This document shows positions 3,231 to 63,827 of a stretch of 64,000 bases of DNA, piece after piece. The position numbers and the translations under genes are program-made. The notes beneath the pieces were generated by a model. It saw only the letters and a list, made by a program, of their open reading frames with translations. It was not told where the DNA came from and did no database searches. Source of the DNA: an uncultured Gemmatimonadales bacterium (GTDB lineage Bacteria; Gemmatimonadota; Gemmatimonadetes; Gemmatimonadales; Gemmatimonadaceae); NCBI GenBank assembly GCA_963851265.1, contig CAWKNZ010000007.1, positions 544,001 through 608,000 of the forward strand, given 5' to 3'. How positions within the stretch are numbered: position 1 is the stretch's first letter; the number at the start of each line of letters is the position of its first letter.

Positions 3231-3431
3231 GACAGTCGCGCCGCGGGGGTGAGGCCGCACGGCCGCGCGGGCCGCCTAACGTGTCCGCCGATCGGTCGCG
3301 GCGGTCGACGTCGGGCGATGGACCGACGCGGCGCAGAGTCCGCGCCCCGCCACGCACGCTGGTGTCGTATCGCCCGCCGGTCGGCGCCGCCGTCCACCGC
3401 GCGCCCGGCCTTCGCTACTGTCCTCGTCGCC

Positions 3432-5474
3432 ATGACCGACTCACCTCTCCGCCCATCGCACGCATCCGCTGCGGACACCGAGCTCCGCCTGGCGGTCGAG
3501 CGGGCGCTCGGCGGCTCGTACGCCCTCGGGGCGGAGTTGGACGGCGGCGGCATGGCGCGCGTATTCGTCGCGCACGACGAGGCGCTGGGCCGCGACGTGG
3601 TCGTCAAGGTGCTCGCGCCCGGCCGCGCGGGCGACGGCGCAGCCGAGCGCTTCGCGCGCGAGGCGCGCACGGCCGCCCGGTTGCAGGAGCCCCACATCGT
3701 CCCGGTACTCGGGGTCGGCGCGACCGCGGGCGGGCGGCCGTACGGCGGGCTTCCCTACTACACGATGCCGTTCGTGCGGGGCGAGTCGCTACGCGCGCGC
3801 CTGGCCCGGGGCGGCGCGCTCGCGCCGCGCGAGGGCGTCGCGGTGCTTCGAGACGTCGCGACGGCCCTCGCCTACGCGCACGCGCGCGGCGTGGTGCACC
3901 GCGACCTCAAGCCGGGCAACGTGTTGCTCGCCGCCGGCGGCGCCGGACCCACCGCGCTCGTGATCGACTTCGGGATCGCGAAGGCGCTGCGCGCGGCCGC
4001 CGGCGCCGACGCAGTGCTCACCGGTACGGCGCTCACCGGCGCCGGGCTCACGGCGTCGGGCGTGGTCGTGGGGACCCCGGCGTACATGGCGCCGGAGCAG
4101 GCGGCGGCCGATCCGGCCCTCGACGCGCGCGCCGACCTCTACGCCTGGGGGGTGGTCGCTTACGAGGCGCTCGCGGGACGGCACCCATTCGCGCACCGCC
4201 CGACGCCGGCCGCCCTCCTCGTCGCCCATCTCACCGAACGCCCCGCGCCGTTCGGCGACGCCGCGCCCGGGGTGCCGGCCGGGGTGGCCGAGGTCGTGAT
4301 GCGATGTCTCGAGAAGGACCCGGCGGACCGGCCCGGCGACGCCGGCGCGGTGCTCGACGCGCTCGATGCCGCGCTCGCGGCGCCGCCCGGGGCCGCTGAC
4401 GTCTGGCCCGCGCCGCTCCCGCGTCGCCGCATCGCGGCGCACCGCTTCCTGCTCACAGAAGCCGTCGTGCGGCGGCTCGAGCGCCCGGGGCGCGACCCAC
4501 GCCTCCTCGACCGCGCGCTCCACTACCTGGAGAACGACACGGCCAGCGACGTGCTGCTCTTCTGCGTGCACGGACTGGGGGGCGACGCCGACGAGTTCGT
4601 GCCGTTGCTCGAGCGCACGCCACATCGCGCCGTCGCCCCCACCCTGGTCGGCTTCGAACCGAGCGGCGACGCGCCGCGGGTCCCCCTCGCGCTCGCCGCG
4701 CACCTCGGCCTGCTGCGCGCCGTCCTCGCCGACGCGGCCGCGCGCCTCCGGCCGTCGCGCGTCGTACTGGTCGGCATGTCGTCCGGGGCGGACCTGATCC
4801 TGCGGCTGCTGGCGAGCGCGTCGGACCCGGGCGGGTCGAATGCTGGCGGGGTCGCCGACGCGCCACCGCTGCGCGCCGACGCGTGCCTCGCCCTCGGCCC
4901 CAACCTGTCGCGCGCCACCACGTTCGCGAGCCGGGTCTTTGCGGGCCTGGCGGATCGGCGCGCGCTCGACCAAGCCGCCCCGGAGGCGCCCGGCGCCACC
5001 ACGCGCGCGCTGCTGGACGACCTACGGCGCCTGGGCGCGGACGCCGTCGACCTGGACGAGTGGCTGAACCTGATGACGTACCAACTCCGGACCCTGCGCA
5101 AGTTCCGCGGCGACCTCGCGCCACTACGCCGCCTCGCCACCGACATCGTGCGCCCGTTCCAGCACCCGTTCGCGGGCCCGGTCTCGGCAGGTACGGAGGG
5201 GTCCGACGCTGGACCGGAGGAGGCGGAGGTGTTCGCGGGATGGTTCCGCGCGGCGAGCGCGCGCGTCGGGGCGATCCGTTGCGTCTTCGAGGCGAGCACG
5301 ACGTGCACGGCGCTCGTGCAGGCGCTCAGACTGCGAAACCTCGACGACGGGGTTCTCGGGCCTCGCTACCGCGAGGACGCCCTCTTCCTCGAACCGACGC
5401 CTGACCACTTCGCGCTCCTCGAGCCCGCGCGCATGACGCGCCACATCGACGCGCTGCTCGCGCAGCTCGCGTGA
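3432..5474 (+). CDS. Hanks-type Ser/Thr protein kinase fused to an alpha/beta-hydrolase domain
   Basis: GGMARVF, VVVKVL, HRDLKPGN, DFGIAK, GTPAYMAPEQ; C-terminal VHGLGG, GMSSG nucleophile elbow, DHF. Confidence 0.88.
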   Translation: MTDSPLRPSHASAADTELRLAVERALGGSYALGAELDGGGMARVFVAHDEALGRDVVVKVLAPGRAGDGAAERFAREARTAARLQEPHIVPVLGVGATAGGRPYGGLPYYTMPFVRGESLRARLARGGALAPREGVAVLRDVATALAYAHARGVVHRDLKPGNVLLAAGGAGPTALVIDFGIAKALRAAAGADAVLTGTALTGAGLTASGVVVGTPAYMAPEQAAADPALDARADLYAWGVVAYEALAGRHPFAHRPTPAALLVAHLTERPAPFGDAAPGVPAGVAEVVMRCLEKDPADRPGDAGAVLDALDAALAAPPGAADVWPAPLPRRRIAAHRFLLTEAVVRRLERPGRDPRLLDRALHYLENDTASDVLLFCVHGLGGDADEFVPLLERTPHRAVAPTLVGFEPSGDAPRVPLALAAHLGLLRAVLADAAARLRPSRVVLVGMSSGADLILRLLASASDPGGSNAGGVADAPPLRADACLALGPNLSRATTFASRVFAGLADRRALDQAAPEAPGATTRALLDDLRRLGADAVDLDEWLNLMTYQLRTLRKFRGDLAPLRRLATDIVRPFQHPFAGPVSAGTEGSDAGPEEAEVFAGWFRAASARVGAIRCVFEASTTCTALVQALRLRNLDDGVLGPRYREDALFLEPTPDHFALLEPARMTRHIDALLAQLA

Positions 5475-5732
5475 CGGGCCGCGGACTTCCGTCACGACGC
5501 GCTTCGGCGGACGGCACTGCTTCTCACAACGTGCCGTCCGTCTCTCCTGCAGCTTCCCGGCCGCGCAGGACGTGCACGTGAAGGTCCGCCCATCGGGCGC
5601 GAGTGTCATCCGGTAATCGCGCTCCTCCTTACCCGGCACCGGGATCACCGTCGCAGCCCCGGGCGCGTCGCCGCATTCTGCGCCGGGCGTATCCTGGCCC
5701 GGCTTGTAACGCAGCCCGGCTGCGGTACCGCC

Positions 5733-6047
5733 GATCCGGGCGAGCGCCCAAGCCGCGTGCTCGCGCACGAGCGGGTCGGCCTCGTCGAGCGCGCGCGCGA
5801 GCACGTCCGCGTCGTCCGCCGTCCGGACGTTGCCGAGCACCACGGCCGCGTTACGCCGGAGCCCGCGCAACTTGGCCCGTTTCATCGGCGAGCCGCGGAA
5901 CGCCACCGAAAACTCGTGCTGCGTCATGCCTAACAAGTCCCGCGCGAGCGTCCGCGCGTCCTTGCCGCCTAACGCGTCGCGAGCGGCATACGGCGAATCG
6001 CTAGGCAGTTCGCGCGCGAACCGCACGTTCCACGGGCACACGTCCTG
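5733..6047 (-). pseudogene. Orphan duplicate of the queG 3' part (105 codons)
   Basis: QDVCPWN...GSPMKRAKLRGL.RNAAVVLGN...PLVREHAAWAL.RI aligns without gaps to 8755-9069; 79/105 aa identical by hand alignment; no N-terminal queG part. Confidence 0.85.
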
Positions 6048-6403: not shown

Positions 6404-8701
6404 ATGGCACATACGGACGGAGGTGCGCCGGGCCCGCTGACGGCCGGGGGTGTGGAGGAGGAGGCTGCCCGCCTCTTCGCCGGCCCCGGCGCGATGCGGG
6501 CCCTTTGCCGCATGCACGATTGGGCGGGAACGCCGCTCGGCCCCGTCGCGGCATGGTCGCCGACGCTTCGCCTGGCTGTCCGGCTCTGCCTCGACGCGGG
6601 CTTCCCGACCTGCCTCTACGCGGGCGACGATCTGGTGCTCGTCTACAACGACGGCTTCATCGCGTCGCTCGGCCGGAAGCACCCGGATGCGCTGGGGCGC
6701 CCCGCGCGGGCGGTGTGGGCCGAGCTCTGGGCGCAGTCCGCCCCCGACTTCGCGCAGGTCCGGGCGACCGGCGCCCCCGTGTTCCACTACGACCAGCGGT
6801 TCGTCTTCGACCGCGGCGCCGACGTACCCCAGGAAGCGTTCTTCACCTTCGCTTTCTCGCCCGTCCACGACGAGGACGGCGCGCTCGTCGGCGTGCTCAG
6901 CACCATCAGCGAGACCACCGCCCGCGTGCGTGCCGAGGCGGCCCTCGCGGCCGAGCGCGAGACGCTTCGCGCACTGATCCTCTCGATGCCCGCGCCGCTC
7001 GCGCTGCTGGATGGCCCCGACCACCGCTATGTGCTCGTGAACGACGCGTTCCGGCGAATCATCACCGCCGGGCGTGACGTCACCGGCCTGACCCCCCAGG
7101 AGGCCTTCCCCGAGCTCGCCGGGACGGGGATGTTCGAGCACAACGCCCGCGTGTACGCGACGGGCGAGCCGTGGATCGGCCCGGAGACGCCGGTGCGCTA
7201 CGACCGGGACGGCACCGGGCTCCAGGACACCTGGTTCGACCTGCGCTTCGAGCCGGTCCGCGATGCCGAAGGGCGGGTCACGGCGATCCTCCACTTCGCC
7301 GTCGAGGTGACCGAGCAGGTGCACGCCCGGCGCTCGGTCGAGGAGCTGCTCGCGGCGGAGCGGGCGGCGCGCCGCCGCATCGAGCGCCTGCTGGCGGCCT
7401 CGTTCGCGCTGACGGCTGCGGCGACGCCGGCCACCGTCGCGGCCGTGATCGCACGCGACGGCGCCGCGCTCGTGGAGGCGGACGCCGGCGCGGTGTATCT
7501 CCGGATGTCCGCCCACGGCGAGACCGGCGGGGGCGAGGCTTCCCCAGGCGCTGACGGCCTTCGCCTGCTCTCGGAGACCGGGTTCGAGGCACCGGCGACT
7601 GATGAGTTCGGTTGGGTGCCGCTCGAGGCCGCCGTCCCCGTCGCCGAAGCGGCGCGGACCGGGGAGCTGGTCTTGCTCGAGCACCGCGCGGCGCTCGCCG
7701 CGCGGTACCCAGCGCTCGCTGCGTCCATCGCGCGTGCCGGACGCGCGGCGCTGCTGGCCGCCCCACTCCGGGTGGGCGACCGGGTCATCGGCGCGCTCGC
7801 CTTCGCCTACGACGCGCCGCGGGCGTTCAAGGCCGAGGAGCGTGGATTTGCCGCGGTGCTCGCGCAACAGTGCGCACAGGCGCTGGAGCGCGCGGGCCTA
7901 TTGGCGGCCGAGCGCGCGGCCCGGGCCACGGCCGAGACGGAGCGTGCGGCCGCCGAAGCCGCGCGCCGCGCCGCCGAGGCCGCGAACCGCGCCAAAGGCG
8001 AGTTCTTGGCCGTGATGAGCCACGAGCTCCGCACGCCGCTCAACGCCATCGGCGGCTACGCGGAGCTGATCGAGCTGGGGATCCACGGGTCCGTGACGGA
8101 GGCGCAGCGCACGGCCCTCGGGCGCATTCAAGCCAGTCAGCGACATCTCCTCGGGCTCATCGCCGCCGTGCTCGATTATTCCCGCATCGAGGCCGGGGCG
8201 GTGACGTACCGGCTGAGCGACGTGCCCGTCGTCGAGGCGGTCGCGGAGGCAGAGGCGCTCGTCGCGCCTCAGCTCCGAAGCAAGGGGCTGGGCTACGCGT
8301 GGTCGGGCGTACCCGCTGGCCTGTCCGTCCGGGCCGACCGCGAGAAGCTGCAGCAGGTCCTGCTCAACCTGCTCGGCAACGCCGTCAAGTTCACCGACGC
8401 GCGCGACGGGGCGCCGGGGCGGATCGAGGTGACGTGCGCCGACGAGGGCGGGGCAGACGACATGCTCGGCCGCGTGCTCCTACGCGTGCACGACACGGGT
8501 GTGGGAATCGCAGCGGAGAAGCTCGCGAGCGTGTTCGAGCCGTTCGTGCAGGCCGACCAGCGGCTCACGCGCCCGCAGGAGGGGGTCGGGCTCGGGCTGG
8601 CGATCAGCCGCGACCTGGCGCGCGGCATGGGCGGCGACCTGACGGCCGAGAGCACGCTGGGTGTGGGGAGCACGTTCACGCTGACGCTCCCGCGCGCCTA
8701 A
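6404..8701 (+). CDS. PAS-PAS-GAF sensor histidine kinase
   Basis: GGAGGAG RBS; DWAGTPLGP PAS leader; FLAVMSHELRTPLNAI (H box), NLLGNAVKFT, DTGVGI, GVGLGL. Confidence 0.92.
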   Translation: MAHTDGGAPGPLTAGGVEEEAARLFAGPGAMRALCRMHDWAGTPLGPVAAWSPTLRLAVRLCLDAGFPTCLYAGDDLVLVYNDGFIASLGRKHPDALGRPARAVWAELWAQSAPDFAQVRATGAPVFHYDQRFVFDRGADVPQEAFFTFAFSPVHDEDGALVGVLSTISETTARVRAEAALAAERETLRALILSMPAPLALLDGPDHRYVLVNDAFRRIITAGRDVTGLTPQEAFPELAGTGMFEHNARVYATGEPWIGPETPVRYDRDGTGLQDTWFDLRFEPVRDAEGRVTAILHFAVEVTEQVHARRSVEELLAAERAARRRIERLLAASFALTAAATPATVAAVIARDGAALVEADAGAVYLRMSAHGETGGGEASPGADGLRLLSETGFEAPATDEFGWVPLEAAVPVAEAARTGELVLLEHRAALAARYPALAASIARAGRAALLAAPLRVGDRVIGALAFAYDAPRAFKAEERGFAAVLAQQCAQALERAGLLAAERAARATAETERAAAEAARRAAEAANRAKGEFLAVMSHELRTPLNAIGGYAELIELGIHGSVTEAQRTALGRIQASQRHLLGLIAAVLDYSRIEAGAVTYRLSDVPVVEAVAEAEALVAPQLRSKGLGYAWSGVPAGLSVRADREKLQQVLLNLLGNAVKFTDARDGAPGRIEVTCADEGGADDMLGRVLLRVHDTGVGIAAEKLASVFEPFVQADQRLTRPQEGVGLGLAISRDLARGMGGDLTAESTLGVGSTFTLTLPRA

Positions 8702-9840
8702 CTGGATTCGCCCGCCGGTCCTGACGCGTCGGTGCCGGCATCGCCGCGAGCGGGGATTCGTTCGAGCGCCCACGCCGCGTGCTCGCGCACGAGCGGCTCG
8801 GGGTCGGCGAGGGCTTGCCGGAGCACCCCCACGTCCTCCACCGTGCCGACGTTGCCGAGCACCACCGCGGCATTGCGCTTGAGCCCGCGCAGCTTGGCGC
8901 GCTTCATCGGCGAGCCGCGGAACGCGGAGGAGAAATCCTCCTGCGTCATGCCCAACAGCTCGCGCGCGAGCGTACGCGCGTCCTTGCCCGCCAGCGCCTC
9001 GCGCGATGCGAAAGGCGACGCCGCGGGAAGTGAACCCGCGAATCGCTGGTTCCACGGGCACACGTCCTGACACACGTCGCACCCGTAGAGCCGGTCCCCC
9101 ACGCCCTCGCGCAACGCCGCCGGGATCTCCCCCCGCTGCTCGATCGTGAGGTACGAGATACACCGCGTCGCGTCCAGCACCCGGGGCGCGACGAACGCGT
9201 CCGTGGGGCACGCGTCCAGACAGCGCGTGCACGACCCACACCGGTCGGCCTCGAACGGCGCGCTCGGCGGCAACTCGGCCGCGAGCACCAGCACGCCGAG
9301 GAAGAAGAACGACCCCCGCCGCGGGTGGAGCAGGTTGGTGTTCTTGCCGAACCACCCGAGTCCGGCGCGCCGCGCGAGGTCCCGCTCGAGGATCGGCCCC
9401 GTGTCGGCGTACGCCTTGCCCGCCACCGCAACGCCTAACGTCGCGTCCAGCCACGCGTGCAGCGCGCGCAGCTTCGCGACCAGGACGTCGTGGTAGTCGT
9501 CGCCGCGCGCGTAGCGGGCGACCGGCCCCGCCGGCTCGCGCCCGCCGTAGTCGAGCGCGACGACCACGGCGCTCAGCGCGCCGGGGTAGGGCAGGCGCGT
9601 GTCGCGCCGCTTGTCCGCGCCCCGCGCGAGGTACGCCATCTCGCCCGCATACCCCGCCGTCAGCCAGTCCTCGAACGCGCCCGCCGTCTCCGCTGGCCCC
9701 AGGCGCACGAAACCGACGAGGTCGAAGCCGAGCGCGTAGCCCTCCGCCTCGAGCCGTCGCGCGATCGACTCGTCGACCACCGGCGCCACGGTCGCGTCCG
9801 GCGTGCTCGCGTCGAGCGCTTTCGCCTCGAGCGCGCTCAC
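8698..9840 (-). CDS. queG: tRNA epoxyqueuosine(34) reductase
   Basis: ARYARGDDYH, DTGPILERDLARRAGLGWFGKN, CGSCTRCLDACPT, CISYLTIE, GCDVCQDVCPWN; GTG at 9840 overlaps upstream stop. Confidence 0.95.
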   Translation of the reverse strand: MSALEAKALDASTPDATVAPVVDESIARRLEAEGYALGFDLVGFVRLGPAETAGAFEDWLTAGYAGEMAYLARGADKRRDTRLPYPGALSAVVVALDYGGREPAGPVARYARGDDYHDVLVAKLRALHAWLDATLGVAVAGKAYADTGPILERDLARRAGLGWFGKNTNLLHPRRGSFFFLGVLVLAAELPPSAPFEADRCGSCTRCLDACPTDAFVAPRVLDATRCISYLTIEQRGEIPAALREGVGDRLYGCDVCQDVCPWNQRFAGSLPAASPFASREALAGKDARTLARELLGMTQEDFSSAFRGSPMKRAKLRGLKRNAAVVLGNVGTVEDVGVLRQALADPEPLVREHAAWALERIPARGDAGTDASGPAGESS

Positions 9841-11102: not shown

Positions 11103-12437
11103 TCACCCGGCCGCGCGCTGCGGTCGCCGGGGAACGTAGCTCTCCAGATCAAACCCGAGCAACAACGTCGACGCCACCACCACGGCCGCGATCACGAACG
11201 GCACCCCGACCCCGAGCCGATCGAACGCGAACCCGGCGATCAGCGGGAACAGCGCGCGCGACGCGCCGCCGAACGTCTGCTGCACGCCCATGTACAACCC
11301 CCGCTCGTTTCCGGCAACCACGCGCGAGAGCATCGCCGTCACGCACGGGAAGGTGAACGCGGCGCCGAGCGGCATGAGCGCGACCGAGAGCGCCAGCTGC
11401 CAGAGCGCGTGCGTCAGCGGCAGCGTCCCGAGTCCGATCCCCAGCAGCACGATGCCGATGCGCGACAGCCGCGCCTCACCGAACCGGTCGATGAGCCAGC
11501 TCAGCAGGAACGCGCGCGTGATCACCGACAGCACGCCGACGTAGGCGAAGAAGTACCCGATCGTGTCGGCCGTCACGTGATACCGCGTCGCCAGGAACAG
11601 GGCGAGGATGGAATTCACGCCCTGGAAGGCGCCGATCGCGACGGCGTAGATCAGGATCAACCGCGACGCCGACTCGGCCGGATGCGCGACCACCCGGAAC
11701 ACGGCCTCGCCAGAGCGCCGCGGCGGCGCGACCGCCTTGTGCTGGCCCGTGGCGCCGGTCGCCCCCGGCTCGCGCGCCTCCTTCAGGTACGTCCACGCGA
11801 ACACGATGTTCACCGTGCAAAGCGCCGCCGCGATGAGCCCTGGCGCCTTGTGGCTCAGGTGCGTCGACCACGACCCGATCACCGGGCCTAACGCGACGCC
11901 GGCGTTGGTCGCGGCCGAGAGCCATCCGAGCGACTTCGCGCGGTCCTCGGGGCGCGTCGCGTCGGCGACGTAGGCCTGGATCACGCCCGTCGTCCCGCCC
12001 CCAGCTCCCTGGACGAGCCGCGACAGGAACAGCAGGACGAGCGACGTCGCGAAGCCGAAGATCACGTACGCGATCGCGGACGCGCCTAGCGCGATCACCA
12101 GGGCGGGGCGGCGGCCGTAGCGGTCCGAGAAACGCCCCCAGAGCGGCGCCGAGATGAGCTGCGCCACGGTGAACGCGCTCACCAACAACGCCGTGATCTG
12201 CCCGACGCCGAGGTGGTAGCCCGCGACGTCGAAACCGTGGCCGCCGAGCGCCTTCACGTAGAACGGCAGGAGCGGGATGACCATCAGCACGCCGATCATG
12301 TCGACGAACGCCGTGATCATCAGGATGACGAGCTTCCCGAGCTCCGAGCGCGTGGTCGATCCGCCCGGGTCGCGCGCCGGTGCGGCGTCGGGGGCTGATT
12401 CGGACGTCGAGGTGCGCGCCGCGGGGGGCGCGCTCAC
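11103..12437 (-). CDS. MFS transporter (TetA/DHA1-like)
   Basis: WGRFSDRYGRRP motif A, about 12 TMs; GTGA coupling to upstream permease. Confidence 0.9.
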   Translation of the reverse strand: MSAPPAARTSTSESAPDAAPARDPGGSTTRSELGKLVILMITAFVDMIGVLMVIPLLPFYVKALGGHGFDVAGYHLGVGQITALLVSAFTVAQLISAPLWGRFSDRYGRRPALVIALGASAIAYVIFGFATSLVLLFLSRLVQGAGGGTTGVIQAYVADATRPEDRAKSLGWLSAATNAGVALGPVIGSWSTHLSHKAPGLIAAALCTVNIVFAWTYLKEAREPGATGATGQHKAVAPPRRSGEAVFRVVAHPAESASRLILIYAVAIGAFQGVNSILALFLATRYHVTADTIGYFFAYVGVLSVITRAFLLSWLIDRFGEARLSRIGIVLLGIGLGTLPLTHALWQLALSVALMPLGAAFTFPCVTAMLSRVVAGNERGLYMGVQQTFGGASRALFPLIAGFAFDRLGVGVPFVIAAVVVASTLLLGFDLESYVPRRPQRAAG

Positions 12438-23603: not shown

Positions 23604-23642
23604 CGCGTTAGGCGCGACGCCTCACGCGTCGCGCCTAACGCG
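23604..23642. terminator. 17-bp inverted repeat built from two GTTAGGC/GCCTAAC motifs between convergent genes
   Basis: CGCGTTAGGCGCGACGC-ctcac-GCGTCGCGCCTAACGCG. Confidence 0.75.
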
Positions 23643-25197: not shown

Positions 25198-26481
25198 TCA
25201 GCTCCCTAGCACCGCCGCGAACTGGTCGAGCGCCCAGTCGCACTCGTCGGCCGTGAGGACGAGCGGCGGCGCGACGCGGATGGTGTGTTCGTGCGTCTCC
25301 TTGCACAGCAGCCCGCGCGCCCGCAGCCGCTCGCAGAACGGCCGCGCGCCCCCCTCGCCCGCGTGCAGTTCGACGCCGATGAGCAGCCCCCGGCCGCGCA
25401 CCTCCTTCACCCGCCCGCCGCCTAACGCGCGGAGCCCGGCCCGCAGGCGCGCCCCGATCCGGTCGGCGTTCTCGATCATGCCTTCCTCCACGAGCACGCG
25501 GATCGCCGCGCGCGCGACCGCGCAGGCGAGCGGGTTGCCGCCGAACGTGCTTCCGTGCTCGCCCGGCCGCAGCACGTCCATCGCCTCCGCGTTCGAGAGC
25601 ACCGCGCTCACCGGGTAGAAGCCGCCCGAGAGCGCCTTGCCGACGAGCGTCAGGTCGGCCTCCACCCCCTCGTGCTCCTCGGCGAGCAGGCGGCCCGTGC
25701 GACCGAGCCCGGTCTGAATCTCGTCGAGGACGAGGAGCGCGCGGTGCCGCGTGCAGAGTTCGCGCGCCGCGCGCAGGTAGCCCGCGGGCGGCACGATCAC
25801 GCCCGCCTCGCCCTGGATGGGCTCGAGGAGCACGGCGACCGTGTCGGGCGTGATCGCCGCTTCGAGCGCCGCCGCGTCGCCGTAGGGAACGACGGTGAAC
25901 CCGGGCGCGAACGGCCCGAAGTTGCGTCGCGAGCCCTCGTCGGTGCTGAAGCCCACGATCGCCACGGTGCGCCCGTGGAAGTTGCCATCCGCGACGATCA
26001 CCTGCGCGCGGTCCGGGGCGACGCCCTTCACCTCGTACCCCCACTTCCGCGCGACCTTGATCGCGCTCTCGACGGCCTCCGCGCCCGAGTTCATCGGCAG
26101 CGCGCGGTGCGAGCCGGTGAGCGCGCACAGCTCCTCGTAGAACGGGCCGAGCTGGTCGTTGCGGAACGCGCGCGACGTGAGCGTGAGGCGCGACGCCTGC
26201 GCGACCATCGCCTCGAGGATGCGCGGGTGGCAGTGCCCCTGGTTGACGGCGGAATACGCCGAGAGGCAGTCGAGGTAGCGTCGGCCGTCGACGTCCCACA
26301 CCCACACGCCCGACCCGCGCGTGAGCACGACGTCGAGCGGCTTGTAGTTGCGCGCGCCGTACGCGGCCTCGAGCGCAACGAAGTCGGACGGGCCGTGCGG
26401 GACGGTGGGGACGGCGGACGCGGGGCGGGCGGCGGTGGCGGACACGGGGCGCTCCTGCGGACGGGGAAGGACCTTAGGCAT
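25198..26481 (-). CDS. rocD: Ornithine aminotransferase
   Basis: [69 protein letters not shown]. Confidence 0.95.
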
Positions 26482-41511: not shown

Positions 41512-41646
41512 GCCGCGACGGTAGGGCGCGCGCCGCGGAGCGAGGAGGGCGGAACGTTGCGCCGTGGGCCAGAATTTCGCGCGGACGTGCGGGCGGGCCC
41601 GCGGCGGTCCCGTTAGGCGCTACCGGCGGGCGTCAGCCCGCCGCCC

Positions 41647-44310: not shown

Positions 44311-44667
44311 ATGAAGACCGCCGCCGACCTCATCACCGAAGCCAGGTCCCGAATCCGCGAAGTGTCGCCAGCCGACGTGCAGGCGATGCGCGACCGGGGC
44401 GAGCCCGTCACGCTGCTCGACGTGCGCGAGCCTAACGAATGGGCGATGGGGCGCGTGCCCGGCGCGCTCACCATCGCGCGCGGCCTGCTCGAGTTCTCGG
44501 TCGAGGCGCGCGTGCCGCGCGACGCGCGCGTGGTGGTCTTCTGCGCCAGCGGCGGCCGCTCGGCCCTCGCCGCCGAAACGCTCGCGCAGATGGGTTACAC
44601 GGACGTGGCCTCGATGCGCGACGGGATCCGCGGGTGGGCCGACACGGGGGGCGAGATCGCGACGTGA
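44311..44667 (+). CDS. Rhodanese-like protein
   Basis: LLDVREPNEW, FCASGGRSALAA. Confidence 0.9.
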   Translation: MKTAADLITEARSRIREVSPADVQAMRDRGEPVTLLDVREPNEWAMGRVPGALTIARGLLEFSVEARVPRDARVVVFCASGGRSALAAETLAQMGYTDVASMRDGIRGWADTGGEIAT

Positions 44668-45504: not shown

Positions 45505-47346
45505 ATGCCGTTCCGCTCGGACCTGCTCCACCGCGCGCGCGCCTTGCGCGCGCGGCTCCTTCGCGCGCGCCCTGCCGGCGCACACGTCCGGCGCGCCGCC
45601 ACGATCGCCGCCGGCGCGGCCCTGCTCGCGGCCGCGTGCTCCGACCACACGACGGGGCTCGCGCCCGCCACGCCGACCGGCGCGGGCACGGGCGCCCCCG
45701 ACGCGACCGCGGGCGGCACGAGCGTCGTCGCCGTGCAGGTGCCGGCCTCGATGCGGTCGGCGCCGTTCGACGTGGCTCGCACGCTCGCGGTGCCCAACGG
45801 GTACACCGTCGCGGTCTACGCACGCGTGGGCGGCGCGCGCTTCATGGCGACGGCGCCTAACGGTGACCTGCTCGTCTCGAATCCCGGCGCGGGCAACGTC
45901 TACCGCGTGCGGCCCGGCGTGAACGGCGCCGACCCGACCGTCGCCGCGTGGGCGTCGGGACTCAACCAGCCGCACGACATCGTCTTCCACGGGATCGGCG
46001 GGACGATGTACGTCTACGTCGCCGAGACCGACAGGATCGCCCGGTACACGTGGGACGCGGCGAGCGCGACCGCGCAGAACCGCCAGGTGCTGATCACCGG
46101 CCTGCCGAGCGTGAGCGACACGGCACTGCACGGCGCCTACGCGCACCAGCTCAAGAACATCGCGCTCGGCCCCGACGACAAGCTGTACGTGTCCATCGCG
46201 TCGTCGTGCAACGCGTGCGTCGAGGACACGCGAAGCAATCCCGTGCGCGGCGCGATCTACGTGTACAACGCCGACGGGACCAACGGGCAGATCTTCGCGC
46301 GCGGCATCCGCAACGCCGAGGGCCTCGCCTTCGTGCCGGGCACGAACACGCTGTGGGCCGTGGTGAACAACCGCGACAACACCGCCTACCCGTTCCACCA
46401 GGACTTCGACGGCGACGGCCGCGACGACTACGGCAAGGTGATGCCCGCGTACGTCGACAACCACCCGCCCGACGAGTTCCTCCACGTCACGAACGGGGCC
46501 AACTTCGGCTGGCCCTTCTGCAATCCCGACCCCGACGCGGGAGTCGACAACATGCCGTTCGACCGCGACGTGCAGCTCAACGCCGACGGCAGTCAGCTCG
46601 ACTGCGCCAACGTCGCCACGCGCGTTAACAAGGGGATCCAGGCCCACTCGGCGGCGCTCGGTCTCACCTTCTTCTCGGGCACCCGAGCGCCGGCCGCGCT
46701 GCAGGGCGGGGCGGCGGTGGCACTGCACGGTTCGTGGAACCGGTCCACGCCGACCGGCTACAAGGTGGTGTGGTTCCCGACCGACCCGGGCACGGGAACG
46801 CCCGGCGTGCAGGAGGATCTCGTGAGCGGGTGGCTCGTGGGCGGGTCGGCGTGGGGGCGCCCCGTCGACGTCGCGGTCGATGCCACGGGCGGCGTGCTCA
46901 TCTCCGACGACCAGAGCGGGACCATCTACAGACTCGCGCCGCAGGCCGCGGCCGCGAAGGCGCTCGCCGGCCGCCAGTCGGGGCTGTGCCTCGACGTGAG
47001 CGGCGCGTCGCAGACCAACGGCTCGCGGACGATTCTCTGGACGTGCTACCCGGGCTCCAGTCAGCAGTGGGTGTTCCCGGCGGTCGGGACCACGGGCACC
47101 ATCCGCGTGTACGGCGCCAAGTGCCTCGACGCGCTGTGGGGCGGCACGCACGACGGCGAACCCGTCGGCATCTGGGACTGCTGGGGGGGAGTCAACCAGC
47201 AGTGGACGGTCAGCGCGGCGGGAGACGTGATCAACGCCGCGACCGGGCGCTGCCTCGACGCCACGGACTTCGGGACGCGCGCGGGGACGGTGCTGCAGCT
47301 GTGGACGTGCTACGGCTCGCTCAACCAGCGGTGGGACGAGGAGTGA
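45505..47346 (+). CDS. Glucose/sorbosone dehydrogenase-like beta-propeller lipoprotein with C-terminal ricin-B lectin domain
   Basis: LAAAC lipobox; GIRNAEG, HSAALG, HGSWNR, GRPVDV, ISDD; three CLD...QQW/QRW repeats. Confidence 0.88.
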   Translation: MPFRSDLLHRARALRARLLRARPAGAHVRRAATIAAGAALLAAACSDHTTGLAPATPTGAGTGAPDATAGGTSVVAVQVPASMRSAPFDVARTLAVPNGYTVAVYARVGGARFMATAPNGDLLVSNPGAGNVYRVRPGVNGADPTVAAWASGLNQPHDIVFHGIGGTMYVYVAETDRIARYTWDAASATAQNRQVLITGLPSVSDTALHGAYAHQLKNIALGPDDKLYVSIASSCNACVEDTRSNPVRGAIYVYNADGTNGQIFARGIRNAEGLAFVPGTNTLWAVVNNRDNTAYPFHQDFDGDGRDDYGKVMPAYVDNHPPDEFLHVTNGANFGWPFCNPDPDAGVDNMPFDRDVQLNADGSQLDCANVATRVNKGIQAHSAALGLTFFSGTRAPAALQGGAAVALHGSWNRSTPTGYKVVWFPTDPGTGTPGVQEDLVSGWLVGGSAWGRPVDVAVDATGGVLISDDQSGTIYRLAPQAAAAKALAGRQSGLCLDVSGASQTNGSRTILWTCYPGSSQQWVFPAVGTTGTIRVYGAKCLDALWGGTHDGEPVGIWDCWGGVNQQWTVSAAGDVINAATGRCLDATDFGTRAGTVLQLWTCYGSLNQRWDEE

Positions 47347-47457: not shown

Positions 47458-48915
47458 ATGCCTACGCCCGTCCACGACGTACCCCCGTCCGAGTCCGGCG
47501 CGCCGGGCGTCGACGCGACTGACTCGCCCGACGCCCGGGCGCTCGACCCCGACGCGCCCGACCCCGACGCGCCCGACCCCGACGCGGCGACCGAGTCGGG
47601 GTGGCGGCGCGCGCGCCTCACGCCGTCGCTCGAGGAGGCGTACCGCACCGTACCGGTCGTCGGCACGACGTGGTTCCGCAAGCTGCTCGCCTTCGCGGGC
47701 CCCGGCTACCTGGTCGCCGTCGGCTACATGGACCCGGGCAACTGGGCGACCGACCTCGCGGGCGGCTCGCGCTTCGGCTACACGCTGCTCTCGGTCGTGC
47801 TGCTGTCGAATCTGATGGCGGTGCTGCTCCAGGGGCTCGCCTCCAAGCTCGGCATCGTCACCGGGCGCGACCTCGCGCAGGCGTGCCGCGACCACTACTC
47901 GCGGCCGACGTCGATCACGCTCTGGGTGCTGGCCGAGATCGCCATCGCCGCGTGCGACCTGGCGGAGGTGATCGGGTCGGCGATCGCGCTCAACCTGCTG
48001 TTCCACCTCCCGATCACGTTAGGCATCCTCGTCACGGCGGGCGACGTGCTGCTCGTGCTCGGGCTGCAGCACCGCGGGTTCCGCTGGCTCGAGGCGGTGG
48101 TGGTCGCGCTCGTCGCGACGGTGGGGGTGTGCTTCGTCTACGTGCTCGTGGCCAGCCGCCCCGACTACGCGGGCGTGCTGCGCGGGTTCGTGCCGTCGCC
48201 CGCGATCCTGCGCAACCCCGAGATGCTCTACATCGCGGTGGGCATCCTCGGCGCGACGGTGATGCCCCACAACCTGTACCTGCACTCGAGCATCGTGCAG
48301 ACGCGCAAGTACGCGCAGACGGCCGCGGGGCGGCACGAGGCGGTGCGGTACGCCTTCCTCGACTCGACCATCGCGCTCTCCGCGGCGCTGTTCATCAACG
48401 CGGCCATCCTGATCGTCGCCGCGGCGACGTTCCACCGCGCGGGCTACACGCAGGTGGCCGAGATCCAGGACGCGCACCGGCTGCTCACCCCGCTGCTCGG
48501 CGCGTCGGGGGCGAGCGTCGCGTTCGCGCTCGCGCTCCTCGCCAGCGGGCAGAACTCGACCCTCACCGGGACCCTGGCCGGGCAGATCGTGATGGAAGGG
48601 TTCCTCGACGTGCGACTACGCCCGTGGGTGCGGCGCCTCATCACGCGGGGACTCGCGATCGTGCCCGCGGTCGCGGTGAGCATCGTCGCGGGCGAACGCG
48701 GCACCGCCCAGCTCCTCGTGCTGAGCCAGGTCGTGCTCTCGCTGCAGCTGTCGTTCGCCGTGGTGCCGCTCGTGCGGTTCACGAGCGACCGCGCCAAGAT
48801 GGGCCGGTTCGTCAACGCGCCGTGGCTCACGGCGACGGCGTGGGTCACGGCGTTCGTGATCGCGGCGCTCAACGCGTGGCTGCTGCTGCAGACGGCGCGC
48901 GGGTGGTTCGCGTGA
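47458..48915 (+). CDS. mntH: Nramp divalent metal (Mn2+) transporter
   Basis: [39 protein letters not shown]. Confidence 0.95.
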
Positions 48916-50094: not shown

Positions 50095-50990
50095 TCCGGC
50101 CGCACCGCCGCGCCGCCCGGCCGACCGTCGCGCGCCTAACGGCAGCGGCGGTCGTGCCCCTGGCCGCCCTCGCTGCCGCGGCGGCTCCGGCGCGGGCGCA
50201 GATCGACACCGCGGCACCGCCCCAGCCGGTCCGCACGATCGCGGCCGACGAACGGCTGCGCACCGACGCGGGACTGCGAGTGGGCGACACCGTCCTCCTC
50301 ACAGCGCGCGCGGGGGACACGGCCCGCGCGACGCGCGCGGTCGTCTCCGCGTTCGTCGAGCGAGGCGCCGACCCCAGCGAGATCGCCCGCAGCGAGTACC
50401 GCGTACGTCTCCACCTCGACGTGCTGCAACAGGTGGGCGCCTACGCGGACCGGGTGGACCGCTTCGCGGTCGGGACGCGCCCGGGTCGAACGGACGCCGC
50501 CGTCGCCGCGATCAACGAGCCCGCGTTCGGGTTCCGCGCCTACCGCTCGGCCGACGTCGCGGTGGGCACGTCGCGCACCTTCGAGGTCGTGCGCCGCTTC
50601 CACCGCGCCATCGGCGTGATCACGGTCGTGGCGAGCGCGATGTTCCTGCTGTGCATCCTCGTGCTCAAGGTCGAGGAGCGTCGGCGCGACGTGGCCGCGC
50701 TCCGGCTGATGGGCCTGTCGCGGCGCACGGTCGTCGGCGCGCTCGTGCTCGAGGCCGCACTCGTCGCGCTGCTGGGCTCCGCCGCGGGGCTGGTCGTCGG
50801 GTCGATCGCGGCGCGCTTGGTCAACTGGCACTACCAGGCCGCGTTCCGCACGCCGCTGGTGTTCGTGCTCGTCACACCCGGCGTCGCGCTCTTCGCCACG
50901 AGCCTCTCCGTCGCGCTCGGCGTCGGCGCCGGCTTCCTCGCCGCGCGGCGCCTCGCCAACGCGGCCCCGCTCGCCCTGCTCGGGCGTTAG
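50091..50990 (+). CDS. FtsX/MacB-type permease, C-terminal half only
   Basis: EERRRDVAALRLMG, LEAAL, three TMs; start uncertain (CTG 50091 or GTG 50154). Confidence 0.8.
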   Translation: MIRPHRRAARPTVARLTAAAVVPLAALAAAAAPARAQIDTAAPPQPVRTIAADERLRTDAGLRVGDTVLLTARAGDTARATRAVVSAFVERGADPSEIARSEYRVRLHLDVLQQVGAYADRVDRFAVGTRPGRTDAAVAAINEPAFGFRAYRSADVAVGTSRTFEVVRRFHRAIGVITVVASAMFLLCILVLKVEERRRDVAALRLMGLSRRTVVGALVLEAALVALLGSAAGLVVGSIAARLVNWHYQAAFRTPLVFVLVTPGVALFATSLSVALGVGAGFLAARRLANAAPLALLGR

Positions 50991-51007
50991 GCAGGCGGCG
51001 GGCGACC

Positions 51008-52222: not shown

Positions 52223-52911
52223 CGGACCTCGTGCTCGACGTGCGGGACGCCCGCCGCGACTACACCGTCGGCTCGGAGCCGGTGCACGCGCTGCGCGGCG
52301 TGACGTTCGGCGTGGCGCGCGGCGAGTGGGTGGCGGTGGTCGGCCCGTCGGGGTGCGGCAAGTCGACGCTGCTGCACCTCATGGGCGCGGTCGACCGCGC
52401 CACCGGCGGCCGCGTGGTGATCGACGGGCGCGACGTCGGCGCGTTAGGCGACCGCGACGCGACGGCGTTCCGCCTGGGGCACGTCGGCTTCGTCTTCCAG
52501 CGGTTCTACCTGCTGCCGATGCTCACCGCGCGCGAGAACGTCGAGCTGCCGATGGCCGAGGCGGGGGTGAAGGCGGCGGAGCGGCGGGCGCGGGCGCGCG
52601 ACCTGCTCGGCTACGTCGGGCTCGCCGGCCGCGAGGGGCACCGCCCGTCGCAGCTGTCGGGCGGCGAGCAGCAGCGGGTCGCGATCGCGCGCGCCCTCGC
52701 CAACCGCCCCGCACTCCTCCTCGCCGACGAGCCCACCGGAGAGCTCGACGCGCGCACGGGGCGCGAGATCATCGACCTGTTAGGCCGGCTGAACGCGGAC
52801 GGCACCACGATCGTGGTCGTCACGCACGACGACACGCTGGCGCGCGCGGCGCGGCGGCGGATCCACATGCGCGACGGGGTCGTGGAGCAGGACGAGGCGG
52901 CGCCGTCGTGA
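52219..52911 (+). CDS. ABC ATP-binding protein (LolD-like)
   Basis: [41 protein letters not shown]. Confidence 0.95.
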
Positions 52912-54510: not shown

Positions 54511-55545
54511 TCAGATCCGGTCGCGGCCGGTGACGTCGTCCTTCAGGTTGCGCGCCGCGTCCTTGGTCTTGTCGAGCAGCGACTCGTGCGAGCGCGCGTT
54601 ACCGAGCGTGTCGCTCGTGTTCATCGTGCCGCCGGAGCCGGCCGCGTAGCCCGCCTGCTGGTCGAGCCCTTCGGTGACGAGGCGCTCCTTACGCAGATCC
54701 GCCTCGACCGTCTGGTTGTCGGAGACCTCACGCGTGCGCACGAGAACCTCCTCGGTCGGCACCACGCGCTTGTCGATGACCGCCTCCTCGCGCGTGAGCG
54801 GCACGCGAATGGTCTCCTCGCCGATCCTCAGGTCGCCCGTCGCATCGGCCGCGGAGAGCGGGCGGCGCTCGATGGTGACCTCGTCGCGCATGAGGCCGAC
54901 CTGCTGCTGCACGTGCTCGGTCTCGACGGTCTTGCGCAGGTTGACCTCGCCCGCCTGCACCTGACGCTTGCCTACGGCGAGCTGCTCCTCGCTCAGCGTG
55001 AGGCGGCGCTCCTGGCCCCGGCCGTACGCGTCACGGGCGTAGTCGCGCACGTCGTCCCACTTGTGGCCCGTGTTGCCCTGGGATTCCCATCCGCTGCGCA
55101 GGTGCGGCTCGACGTCGTCGAAGTGCCGGCCGGCGTAGTCCGGGTTCATTCCGGCCACGTGGCCGAGCTGGTACGCCGGGCGGGCCTGGTCGTAGTTGCT
55201 GGACGACGCGGACGACGCGGACGACGTGCCGCCCAGGCCGCGGCCCGAGCGCGACGAGTACTGGTCGCGGTAGTACGTGTCGTCGTTGTCGAACGAGCTC
55301 GCCGCCTCGGATACGGCGCGCCCCGTCCACCAGCCGCCCGCCGCGCCGGCGATGCCGCCGATGATCGTGCCGAGCGGGCCGCCTAACGAGCCGAGCGCGG
55401 CGCCCGTCGCGGCGCCGGCGAGACCGCCCGTCGACTCGCCGACGACGTCGCCGGTCGTCGAGGGGCCGTCGTGCGGGCCGAGGGCCCGGTCGGCCGCGTT
55501 CGCCGTCTTGTTGCGGAGCGAGTTGTCGTTGTAGTTGTCAGCCAT
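54511..55545 (-). CDS. Glycine-zipper + YsnF/AvaK (DUF2382) stress protein
   Basis: LSEEQLAVGKRQVQAGEV.LRK.VETE, IRVPLTREE. Confidence 0.85.
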   Translation of the reverse strand: MADNYNDNSLRNKTANAADRALGPHDGPSTTGDVVGESTGGLAGAATGAALGSLGGPLGTIIGGIAGAAGGWWTGRAVSEAASSFDNDDTYYRDQYSSRSGRGLGGTSSASSASSSNYDQARPAYQLGHVAGMNPDYAGRHFDDVEPHLRSGWESQGNTGHKWDDVRDYARDAYGRGQERRLTLSEEQLAVGKRQVQAGEVNLRKTVETEHVQQQVGLMRDEVTIERRPLSAADATGDLRIGEETIRVPLTREEAVIDKRVVPTEEVLVRTREVSDNQTVEADLRKERLVTEGLDQQAGYAAGSGGTMNTSDTLGNARSHESLLDKTKDAARNLKDDVTGRDRI

Positions 55546-57240: not shown

Positions 57241-57278
57241 GCTACGTTAGGCGGCCCGCTTGGAACGCCTAACGTAGC
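57241..57278. repeat. 13-bp inverted repeat built from a GTTAGGC/GCCTAAC pair (possible terminator)
   Basis: GCTACGTTAGGCG-(12 nt)-CGCCTAACGTAGC about 50 nt after the stop at 57330. Confidence 0.75.
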
Positions 57279-60115: not shown

Positions 60116-60892
60116 TTGCCGCGCGACCCTCGCCCCGCGCCCGTGTCCCGCCGCCTGCTCGTCTTCGTCCTCATCTCGATCGCGGCCGCCGCCGTCTGCG
60201 TGCGGCTCGGCATCTGGCAGCTCTCACGCCTCGCCGAGCGCCGCGCGCACAACGCCGCGCTCGCGGCGCACCTCACGATGGCGCCGGTGGGTTACGCCGC
60301 GCTCCCGCGCGACTCGGCCGGGCGCCACTACCGCCGCGTCACGGTCGCCGGGCGCCCGGATTACGCGCGCGAGTTCGTCCTCGCCAACCGCACGCGCGAC
60401 GGCGCCCCGGGCGTGCACGTGATCACCCCGGTGCGCGTCGGCGTCGGAGGGCCCGCGGGCGACACGCTCGTCCTCGTGGATCGCGGCTGGTTCTACTCGC
60501 CTAACGGCACCGACGCCGACCTCGCGCGCACGCGAGAGGGCGACTCGCTCGCCGTCACGGGCTACGTCGAGCTGCCGTCGCGGCGCCCGGGACCCGCCGG
60601 CCTGACCGGCGCGGGCGGCGCGGCGCGCGCCTACCGGGCGTACCGCTACCTCGACCCCGCCGCCGTCGCGCGCGACATCGGCGAGCCGGTGACCCGCGAC
60701 TACGTCGTGGCCGAACCACTCGCCGACCAGACCCGCCCGCCGTACGACCGGCTCAAGCGGCTCCCCACGCCCGAGGTCACCGACGAGGGGCCGCATTTCA
60801 GCTACGCGGTCCAGTGGTTCTCGTTCGCGACCGTGTCGCTCGTCGGCGCGGCGGCGTTCGTCCGGGCCGAGCGGCGTAAGGGCCGGGGCTGA
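60116..60892 (+). CDS. SURF1-family protein
   Basis: LGIWQL.R, G.HVITP, LVDRGW, HFSYAVQWF. Confidence 0.9.
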   Translation: MPRDPRPAPVSRRLLVFVLISIAAAAVCVRLGIWQLSRLAERRAHNAALAAHLTMAPVGYAALPRDSAGRHYRRVTVAGRPDYAREFVLANRTRDGAPGVHVITPVRVGVGGPAGDTLVLVDRGWFYSPNGTDADLARTREGDSLAVTGYVELPSRRPGPAGLTGAGGAARAYRAYRYLDPAAVARDIGEPVTRDYVVAEPLADQTRPPYDRLKRLPTPEVTDEGPHFSYAVQWFSFATVSLVGAAAFVRAERRKGRG

Positions 60893-60912: not shown

Positions 60913-61314
60913 TCAGACGGCGGCTTTCGTCACCGGCTCGCGCCCGGTGATCATCCCCGACAGTAGCAGGCCGAGGCCGAGGAACAGGTGCAGCCCGACG
61001 TCGTTGCCGCCCAGCGGGACGAGCCCGAGTCCGTCGGGCAGGACGACGCCGAGCGCCGCCAGCACGAGGTAGACGAGCCCCGCGCCTAACAGGAAGGTGC
61101 GCGACCCGCCCATCCCGCGCGCCGCCAGCAGCCCCCACGCGCCGAAGACGAGGTGCACGCAGTTGTGCACCACGTTCACCGGAAAGAGGCCGAAGAGGTG
61201 CGGCGCGGTAATGTAGCTCGGGTCCATGCTGCCCCCCGTCGCGGCGAACCCGGACAGGCCGACGAGGACGAACGCCCATCCGAACAACTGCGAGATCCGC
61301 TGTGCTGCGCGCAT
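60913..61314 (-). CDS. DUF4383-like membrane protein
   Basis: LFGLFPVN.VHN.VHL, four TMs. Confidence 0.82.
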   Translation of the reverse strand: MRAAQRISQLFGWAFVLVGLSGFAATGGSMDPSYITAPHLFGLFPVNVVHNCVHLVFGAWGLLAARGMGGSRTFLLGAGLVYLVLAALGVVLPDGLGLVPLGGNDVGLHLFLGLGLLLSGMITGREPVTKAAV

Positions 61315-61408
61315 CCGGGATACCTGTGTGACGCTGCGTGAATCGTGGCGAGGGAACGCGAGCTGTCTGGTGCAAACGGCTTGCCCGCCCGGCCCATCGC
61401 GGCGCCGG

Positions 61409-62377: not shown

Positions 62378-62384
62378 GCGCGCG

Positions 62385-63827
62385 TCACAGCAGCGTGCCG
62401 TGCAGGATCAGGTAGGCGACCGAGAAGTAGATGCTGAGCCCCGTCACGTCGACGAGCGTCGCGACGAACGGCGCGGACGCGCTCGCCGGGTCGAAGCCGA
62501 GGCGCCGCAGCAGGAAGGGCAGCATGCTCCCGGCGAGCGAGCCGAACGTGACGATGCCGACGAGGGCGCACCCGACCGTCGCCGCGACGAGCGCCCAGTG
62601 CGGCCCGTAGCTGAACAGCCCGAGGTGCTGCCAGATCGTGATGCGCAGGACGCCGATCACGCCCAGGATCGCGCCTAACGTGAGCCCCGCGGGCAGCTCG
62701 CGTATCGCGACCCGCCACCAGTCGCGCAGCGCGACCTCCTTGAGCGCCATCGCGCGCGTGATGAGCGACGTCGCCTGCGACCCCGAGTTGCCGCCGCTCG
62801 ACATCACGAGCGGGATGAACAGCGTGAGCACGACGGCCTTCTCGAGCTCCCCCTCGAAGCGCTGCATCGCGCTCGCCGTGAGCATCTCGGACAGGAACAG
62901 GGCGGACAGCCACCCCGCGCGCTTCTTGATCATCGCGCCGAGCCCGATCTGCATGTACGGCTCGTCGAGCGCCTCCATGCCGCCGAGCTTCTGCACGTCC
63001 TCGGTCTGCTCCTCCTGGATCACGTCGATCACGTCGTCGACCGTGACCACGCCCAACACGCGGCCGTCGGCGTCGACCACGGGCAGCGCGACGAGGTCGT
63101 AGTCCGAGATCAGCCGCGCCACCTCCTCCTGCGTCGCTTCGGCGCGCACGCTGCGCACGTCGGTCCACGCGACGTCGGCGAGCTTCGCGCCCTCCGGCGC
63201 GGCGAGCAGCTCGCGCAGCGACAGCACCCCCGCGAGCCGGCCCGCCGGGTCGGTGGTGTAGATGGCGTACATCGCCTCCTTCCGCCCCGTGCGCGCCACG
63301 CTCCGCACCCCGCGCAGCGCGTCCTCCACCGGCAGCGTCTCGGGCGCGTACACGAACTCCGTCGTCATCAGCCCGCCCGCCGTCGACGGGTCGTAGGCGA
63401 GCAGCCGCTCCGTCTCCTCGCGCTCCGCCGTCGGGATCTCCGCGAGGATCTCGTCGGCTCGCTCCTCGTTCTCCTGCGACAGCTCCTCCAGCAGGTCCGC
63501 GCGGTCGTCGGGCGACATCTCGGTGACGAGCGCGGCGGCCTGCCGCGTCGTCATCGCTTCGAGCGCGAGCGCGCGGCGGTCCTCGTCCAGGTACTCGAGC
63601 ACGTCGGCCGCCCGCGACGGCGACAGCGCGGTCAGGAACGCCACGACCCGCTCCTCCGGGATCGCCTCGGCCACGTCGGCGAGGTCGGCCGGGTGCAACT
63701 CCTCGGTCTCGAGCGCGACGCTCGCCGGGTCCTCGTCGAGGAGCGCGAGGATGTCGGGGGCGAGCAGCGCCCCGACGGGGCGATCGTCCGGCGTCCGGGT
63801 GCTGTCCGAAGCGTGGGGTGGCGTCAT
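62385..63827 (-). CDS. mgtE: Magnesium transporter MgtE
   Basis: HPADLAD, TAGGLMTTE, CBS pair, SSGGNSGSQ, DPASASAPFVATLVDVTG. Confidence 0.95.
   Translation of the reverse strand: MTPPHASDSTRTPDDRPVGALLAPDILALLDEDPASVALETEELHPADLADVAEAIPEERVVAFLTALSPSRAADVLEYLDEDRRALALEAMTTRQAAALVTEMSPDDRADLLEELSQENEERADEILAEIPTAEREETERLLAYDPSTAGGLMTTEFVYAPETLPVEDALRGVRSVARTGRKEAMYAIYTTDPAGRLAGVLSLRELLAAPEGAKLADVAWTDVRSVRAEATQEEVARLISDYDLVALPVVDADGRVLGVVTVDDVIDVIQEEQTEDVQKLGGMEALDEPYMQIGLGAMIKKRAGWLSALFLSEMLTASAMQRFEGELEKAVVLTLFIPLVMSSGGNSGSQATSLITRAMALKEVALRDWWRVAIRELPAGLTLGAILGVIGVLRITIWQHLGLFSYGPHWALVAATVGCALVGIVTFGSLAGSMLPFLLRRLGFDPASASAPFVATLVDVTGLSIYFSVAYLILHGTLL

Follow-up and report, generated by a model that had tools for sequence, protein, structure and literature searches.

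The closest described counterparts of the element considered here are short words that recur along bacterial genomes, namely the DNA uptake sequences (DUS) of Neisseriaceae and uptake signal sequences (USS) of Pasteurellaceae, the cyanobacterial word HIP1 (GCGATCGC), and Chi and the FtsK-orienting polar sequences (KOPS), together with the attC recombination sites of integrons. Chi and KOPS are short, iterated, and asymmetric, with ties to recombination or translocation, and the sites bound by Noc (NBS), SlmA (SBS), and MatP (matS) are palindromic, regionally excluded, present in tens of copies, and arranged relative to the terminus. DUS and USS are described as non-palindromic, non-polar words found about once per 0.7–2.6 kb, placed in coding frames, conserved, absent from atypical genes, and evenly spaced (PMC2817400, PMC2397512, PMC1939737, PMC7811141), with a large excess of close inverted pairs at terminators. 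HIP1 is described as hyper-abundant, conserved beyond codon needs, weakly followed by its near-matches, and patchily lost among lineages. The R''/R' arms of attC, with cores given as RYYYAAC and GTTRRRY (PMC12901181), lie paired 50–150 bp apart in a hairpin with extrahelical bases. Here, we studied the word GCCTAAC (GTTAGGC on the opposite strand), which is iterated through a 64-kb window (the whole stretch of DNA analyzed, G000:C7:544001-608000) of a 4.60-Mb draft genome in 12 contigs (G000) that probably belongs to the genus Gemmatirosa, family Gemmatimonadaceae; a methyltransferase encoded in the window is 79% identical to a Gemmatirosa sp. record, with its other matches in Gemmatimonadaceae, and 76–82% identical to its counterparts in same-genus relatives. 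GCCTAAC shares the listed traits of DUS and USS except the terminator pairs, and shares those of HIP1; it works like these systems, departs from each in features that define it, and belongs to the class of iterated self-tags.

Within the window, 24 exact copies lie between positions 3274 and 62679, 17 on the plus and seven on the minus strand, against 1.89 ± 1.32 expected, and a count of 24 was reached in none of 100 dinucleotide shuffles. The next base 3' is G in 20 copies, A in three, and T in one, and the copies account for 24 of the 31 CTAA/TTAG tetramers. The copy number, strands, and next bases had been tallied in a preliminary description of the window, which also saw that the copies make up most of the CTAA/TTAG tetramers, and our recount reproduced these tallies.

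Across G000, GCCTAAC occurs 1,762 times, against 96 copies expected under an order-2 and 127 under an order-3 Markov model (roughly 14–20 times the null), and it is the top 7-mer of the genome against the order-2 model; GCCTAACG occurs 1,396 times against 58 expected. The word is sharp, with its single-base neighbors ending in TAA-N present in only 8–14 copies each. Coding counts are approximate because genes were called with our own hexamer model (3,643 genes); by these calls, 1,287 copies are coding, against 45–78 in 20 synonymous-codon shuffles. Chance and codon bias are ruled out as causes by the Markov and synonymous-codon nulls, the two comparisons that the preliminary description had proposed, and its suggestion that TTA codons would concentrate in one context held as well, the G-TTA-GGC context containing 995 of the 1,277 TTA codons in the genome. 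By context, 992 copies read G-TTA-GGC, 198 read G-CCT-AAC, 91 lie in other frames, 288 fall between genes, and 193 run across gene ends; the word also encloses 120 of 422 TAA and 82 of 725 TAG stop codons. The intergenic copies, which are free of coding constraint, give the consensus Y-GCCTAAC-R, with G after the core in 74%. Density is greatest in convergent spacers (64 copies in 61.8 kb), and the occupancy of candidate sites climbs with gene GC content at third codon positions (GC3), from 0/44 in the lowest class to 0.18, and is low in ribosomal clusters (2/33). Apart from attC arms, the non-coding copies have no longer repeat in common, which rejects repetitive extragenic palindromes or miniature inverted-repeat transposable elements as their source. 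As a separate observation, CTAG (1,108 vs. 6,043 expected), AGCGCT, and CTCGAG are strongly avoided throughout G000.

The word is maintained at orthologous positions. Between G000 and its relative G001 (320 orthologue pairs, 82% amino acid identity, fourfold-site identity 0.59), 50 of 100 sites are identical, whereas the rare codon TTG is kept in only 48 of 441 cases; with context-matched xCx-Leu-Gly positions, 39/49 sites are kept versus 33/172 controls (p=1e-14). G004 shares 12 of 15 G000 sites, and G012, of another genus, keeps 10/16 versus 30/145 controls (p=0.0008), a comparison in which the flank is not matched. The corresponding comparisons with G008, G120, G164, G210, and G239 lack significance, the number of sites being too low.

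Whatever their relative orientation, copies avoid one another at distances under ~300 bp and are otherwise evenly spaced. Pairs closer than 300 bp number 41 in G000 against 117 expected on the same strand and 38 against 90 on opposite strands, and the same short-range dip is present in G001, G012, and the chromids of G. kalamazoonensis; two control words lack it. The hole is reproduced by a toy model that needs just one site per patch of 300–500 bp. Such repulsion is not expected from a site-autonomous mutation bias, but the patch-repair model that Elhai described for HIP1 would produce it (PMC4390886). Inverted pairs are likewise scarce at close range, with six within 60 bp among the 1,762 copies and, for separations below 50 bp, six against 13 expected. 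GCCTAAC has no replication polarity (leading 217/1,194 vs. lagging 104/614, p=0.56), whereas KOPS is polar around a dif-like site (55:16 and 21:47; 81:30 on C7) that lies at the KOPS switch near C2 ~1,368,950, 21 kb from a XerD-like gene. Identity with Chi or KOPS is therefore ruled out; unlike them, the word is non-polar, and its opposite-strand copies exclude each other as same-strand ones do. Neither a dip nor a peak of the word was found at dif in G000, and the dif sequence itself lacks GCCTAAC, which rejects the XerD arm of dif as its origin.

A second kind of exclusion is centered on partition loci. The widest stretch of G000 without the word, 45 kb at C1:182,877-227,963, contains mnmG-parA-parB, with dnaA ~180 kb from parAB, and holds two perfect 16-bp palindromes that resemble variant parS (G000:C1:192709 and 195715). 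All four ParB-domain matches of G000 fall inside the 15 gaps that reach 14.5 kb or more and together make up 6% of the genome (P ~1e-5), and three of the four loci are rep-parAB-type modules. In G. kalamazoonensis, which, like the other parB loci outside G000, was examined after the G000 gap had been seen, parB of both chromids lies in gaps (10.9 and 9.2 kb) wider than the mean spacing of 1.2–1.3 kb. Within 5 kb of 11 Gemmatirosa ParB-domain loci, there are 13 copies against 60.7 expected, and the seven such loci outside G000 contribute 12 against 45.5. Occupancy rises smoothly with distance from ParB over 0–12.5 kb (0.02, 0.045, 0.075, 0.095, 0.136). Near these loci, candidate sites (ratio 0.91) and one control word (1.01) are flat, and the near-match GCCCAAC is also halved. 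ParB is reported to spread over ~15 kb (PMC9242446). Exclusion from ParB loci fits more readily with an intracellular reader; the replication origin adjoins parAB on the chromids and may therefore contribute to the void. Several further observations concern these regions: CAATCCG, a reversed control word, is more frequent close to ParB loci (11 vs. 4), where iteron repeats at one origin may account for it; variant parS TGTGGCACGTGCCACA flanks mnmG in G000, G001, and G004, with the canonical site in other genera; and the rep-parAB-type modules of G000 lie on C8, C9, and C6, with RPA matches on C9 and C6 and a DnaA_N-domain protein on C8. The presence of these modules suggests several chromids in G000. 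On chromid 2, a stretch thin in the word, considered as a further rep/par locus, turned out to be a sugar-use cluster.

Among relatives, scattered lineages of Gemmatimonadales are rich in the word, at up to ~1,500 copies per Mb, whereas most other lineages do not rise above the null level. More than 150 copies per Mb were found in 11 of 41 relatives: all five of the genus, G012 (another genus, 7,758 copies), G008, G017, G018, G036, and G040, the word-rich status of G017, G018, G036, and G040 being only thinly checked. At phylum scale, 14 of 251 genomes contain at least 100 copies of GCCTAACG, nine of them from the home family and the other five from a single genus of another family, with none among 81 genomes outside the order. 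GCCTAACG is the top word in every word-rich genome sampled except G036. Five word-poor genomes, sampled at 80 kb each, have 0–1 copies per sample, and a substitute word was not found in them. The unpublished G011, G084, G123, and G202 serve only as word-poor rows of the tally (G011 also in the methyltransferase tree), and no claim depends on them. On a quick methyltransferase tree, word-rich genomes are scattered, with rich G008 sister to poor G024. Two G. kalamazoonensis chromids, NZ_CP007129 and NZ_CP007130, hold 892 and 806 copies, against 50 and 44 for control words. As side observations, both carry short tandem runs of the word with 12-bp spacing (NZ_CP007129 1005370-1005430; 108118-108166 in the other chromid stretch, W02), and near-variants differ by lineage, with GCCAAACG raised in G008, ACCTAAC and GCATAAC in G012, and GCCCAAC in Gemmatirosa, resembling dialects of one specificity.

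Our tentative interpretation, held at somewhat less than even confidence, is that YGCCTAACR is a genome-wide self-tag read by an intracellular sequence-specific protein that promotes recombination or repair. Such a protein would read the word on the cell's own double-stranded replicons, and its effect would be local and saturating, with one site serving a patch of ~300–500 bp and a nearby second site adding little. The site would most likely license or speed homologous recombination or repair in its patch, so that tagged alleles are kept and spread; sites would build up, in opposition to GC pressure, where coding permits (Leu-Gly, Pro-Asn, stop codons, convergent spacers), and ParB-coated DNA at partition loci would bar the reader, leaving the word to decay there. 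This mechanism is akin to that reported for HIP1, minus methylation; HIP1 placed in homology arms is reported to raise integration (10.1101/2024.09.10.611283). HIP1 itself is a palindromic octamer with a periodicity of 10–90 kb that resident methyltransferases methylate. In its other features GCCTAAC differs from HIP1, being asymmetric instead of palindromic and an AT-rich word in a GC-rich genome, with methylation not reported in the type strain and no C5 methyltransferase found. The data show the enrichment, the conservation of sites, the lack of polarity, the short-range repulsion, the gradient around ParB, and the match to the attC core; a reading protein, its place in the cell, and a role in recombination or repair are inferred from them. 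The preliminary description had proposed a selected or actively driven tag serving DNA uptake, self-marking, or protein binding, or else a methylation mark; the codon nulls, site conservation, and non-polarity support a genome-wide selected or driven tag, and the methylation mark is disfavored.

Several results weigh against an intracellular recombination reader. Even spacing, non-polarity, and frame bias are features of uptake sequences as well. The 45-kb gap taken alone is only borderline after correction for GC3 and scanning (P ~0.05). The Gemmatirosa locus G001:C4 shows no dip, no ParB void was found outside Gemmatirosa (33 copies vs. 39.5 expected at 13 loci, P=0.17), and none was found in the densest genomes, G012 and G239. 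No reader gene emerged either, as ComEC, ComEA, DprA, MutS, ParB, IntI, two PilX-like proteins, and the window methyltransferase all fail to separate word-rich from word-poor genomes. In the 41-genome panels, ComEC, DprA, and MutS were each detected in 40/41 and ComEA and ParB in 41/41; one PilX-like protein was present in 15/18 rich and 14/23 poor genomes.

Somewhat unlikely, in our judgment, is an uptake signal of the DUS/USS kind: the word would be favored by a pilus or porin receptor and spread by biased transformation, and the ParB void would reflect lower recombination where the partition complex sits. G000 encodes the full competence kit (comEC, comEA beside pilB-pilT-pilC, dprA, pilA-pilMNOP, and three minor-pilin clusters), although competence genes are equally present in word-poor relatives. 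Non-polarity and frame bias suit an uptake signal, as do the empty low-GC3 genes, the density in convergent spacers, and the lineage-specific near-variants. For HIP1, a profiling study reports a link with competence genes (PMC13756078). Also in favor, two USS less than 100 bp apart are reported to give no extra uptake (PMC7811141); against it, the 300-bp hole is short relative to reported neisserial conversion tracts of 1.1–1.7 kb. The few close inverted pairs form hairpins, yet such pairs are rare, whereas 17% of USS are reported to lie within 30 bp of another (PMC7811141). A surface receptor alone also leaves the smooth ParB gradient unexplained. Beyond the scarcity of terminator pairs and the exclusion around ParB loci, the word differs from DUS and USS in phylum, in sequence, and in its length of 7–8 bp.

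An architectural role, in which an abundant nucleoid-associated protein bridges, loops, or tethers DNA at the word and sites are selected for their spacing and for avoidance of ParB sliding zones, is unlikely. It would account for sites that are orientation-blind, separated by 300 bp or more, found on chromosome and chromids alike, and kept out of partition loci; the interaction between roadblocks and ParB spreading has already been studied, and a structural role was reportedly once proposed for HIP1 (PMC5861425). However, a density that varies from null to ~1,500 per Mb, with at least 100 copies of GCCTAACG in 14/251 genomes, is odd for core architecture, the cost of roadblocks should peak in the densest genomes, which show no void, and there is no exclusion from the terminus near dif. 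GCCTAAC further differs from NBS, SBS, and matS in being asymmetric, present in thousands of copies, depleted at parB loci, and without arrangement relative to the terminus.

The preliminary description overlooked that the letters of GCCTAAC are identical to the attC core (R box) of integrons in Gemmatimonadales; by our estimate, the chance of a 7-mer matching the attC core is of the order of 1e-3. The attC bottom strands of G000 fold as typical hairpins closed by GCCTAACG/CGTTAGGC (z −4.1, −6.2, and −2.3). Yet only ~22 of the 1,762 copies are attC arms, all in the cassette array on C10/C6, where alone the word has the paired, hairpin-forming layout of attC, and none of the 24 window copies is among them; ~98% of copies stand alone, lacking a partner arm, an L box, and a hairpin. 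Word-poor relatives carry the same attC ends, so the attC spelling predates the spread of the word. Also seen in G000 were an intI gene split, at C6:1-7000, by ~2 kb of DNA apparently encoding a serine recombinase (judged by eye) and, at C10:185-215 kb, a detached cassette array rich in toxin-antitoxin-like and insertion sequence genes. We regard as improbable, though worth stating, that the word was co-opted from integrons, a host protein recognizing the attC core (for cassette fishing from incoming DNA, or as a domesticated integrase-like reader) having driven it genome-wide with ParB-coated zones spared. Capture of cassettes from transformed DNA has been reported (PMC12614218), so incoming DNA could conceivably provide a link. 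If co-option were true, it would explain the recurrence of one word in separate families and would, for the first time, connect integron recombination sites causally with genome-wide self-tags.

That the word is a simple by-product of IntI, which would bind or recombine at GTTRRRY and so leave or protect perfect R boxes chromosome-wide, is very improbable. Beyond the shared core and the attC hairpins that close with it, this account draws on the prevalence of IntI in the order (above cut-off in 25/41 genomes) and its reported insertion of cassettes at chromosomal attG; but the attG consensus is given as just GWT with single cleavage (10.1101/2022.09.11.507474), many word-poor genomes have an intact intI, and intI was not found in word-rich G130, G077, and G008 (93–100% complete) and is interrupted in G000. 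Word load does not track intI, even though the identity of letters extends to the order's own attC ends. The common attC variant GTCTAAC is also rare in G000 (64 copies), and few copies of the word are attC arms.

We consider it extremely unlikely that the word is a methylation mark made by a methyltransferase/SNF2 pair in the window and feeding an Elhai-type repair ratchet. The pair consists of an Eco57I/Type IIG-like N6-adenine methyltransferase of 1,141 amino acids (38086..41511, minus strand), a candidate reader judged unlikely, and its partner, an SNF2-type (DrmD-like) helicase of 759 amino acids (35717..37996, minus strand), also a candidate reader. An asymmetric 7-mer with a penultimate A fits Type IIG-like enzymes, and motifs I and IV of the methyltransferase are intact. 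Elhai's model likewise predicts saturation near one site per kb (PMC4390886). Against this stand the orthologues, found in 40/41 genomes whatever their word load and with similar C-terminal motifs, and the lack of a substitute word in the five poor genomes. The helicase adjoins the methyltransferase in 24/32 loci, and the pair (35717-41511) is under all DISARM/BREX cut-offs; it behaves like a housekeeping pair, and as reader it is rejected because it is vertical by the quick tree and present in word-poor genomes. The PacBio methylome of G. kalamazoonensis lists only RGATCY, ATGCAC, and CCAGN7TCA (PMC3974934), and the enzyme in the window could be of the type responsible for ATGCAC. Methylation of GCCTAAC is unlikely because this type strain carries the word densely on its chromids and its methylome omits it, although that evidence is a published motif list from which a partly methylated motif could have gone unreported; the methylation-mark option of the preliminary description is thus disfavored. 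No C5 methyltransferase (PF00145) was found in G000, G001, G004, G012, or G007 (5/5, four of them word-rich), and C5 and PF01555 methyltransferases are rejected as causes, none being shared. In sum, GCCTAAC is unlikely to be a restriction-modification site, which would be methylated and co-distributed with its methyltransferase.

The individual copies in the window illustrate these contexts, and all of the reading frames and genes given for them in the preliminary description were matched. Ten copies read TTA-GGC: those on the plus strand lie in queG, a minus-strand gene (9433..9439), an MFS (major facilitator superfamily) transporter (11886..11892), a class-III aminotransferase (25420..25426), the SNF2 helicase gene (36815..36821), the DUF2382/YsnF gene (55381..55387), the DUF4383 gene (61084..61090), and mgtE (62673..62679), and those on the minus strand in mntH, encoding an Nramp protein (48018..48024), and twice in a LolD-like ABC ATPase (52443..52449 and 52779..52785). 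The three CCT-AAC copies, all plus, are in the rhodanese gene (44430..44436), the glucose/sorbosone dehydrogenase (GSDH) gene (45855..45861), and SURF1 (60499..60505). Eight copies are intergenic, including plus-strand copies at 3274..3280, 5928..5934, 5967..5973 (39 bp after the preceding one), and 50134..50140 and a minus-strand copy upstream of the methyltransferase gene (41612..41618). Three lie across gene ends, including one spanning the ends of the histidine kinase and queG genes (8696..8702, plus) and one overlapping a TAG stop codon (50986..50992, minus). Two inverted pairs form hairpins: 23607 (minus) with 23633 (plus), the arms of a hairpin between convergent genes (23607..23639, −26.7 kcal/mol, z −7.5), and 57246 (minus) with 57267 (plus) (57246..57273, −17.4 kcal/mol, z −5.6).

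The preliminary description did not recognize the word as described, and this agrees with our search; in the literature covered, which left most subscription journals outside, no report of GCCTAAC as an iterated word was found, and GCCTAAC, GTTAGGC, and longer forms led only to unrelated or attC papers. Selected words that run through the genes of a lineage are known from only a few groups (DUS, USS, and HIP1), and GCCTAAC adds a new case in an abundant, little-studied soil phylum, one that offers a cultured strain and, as controls, closely related genomes poor in the word. As footprints of reading, the 300-bp repulsion and the 10-kb ParB gradient turn "self-tag" into testable alternatives, and the ParB gradient test is applicable to DUS and HIP1 genomes too. 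That the word matches the attC core hints that integrons and DNA recognition on the scale of the chromosome may be connected. If the word does raise recombination or uptake, it would be a direct tool for the genetics of Gemmatimonadota.

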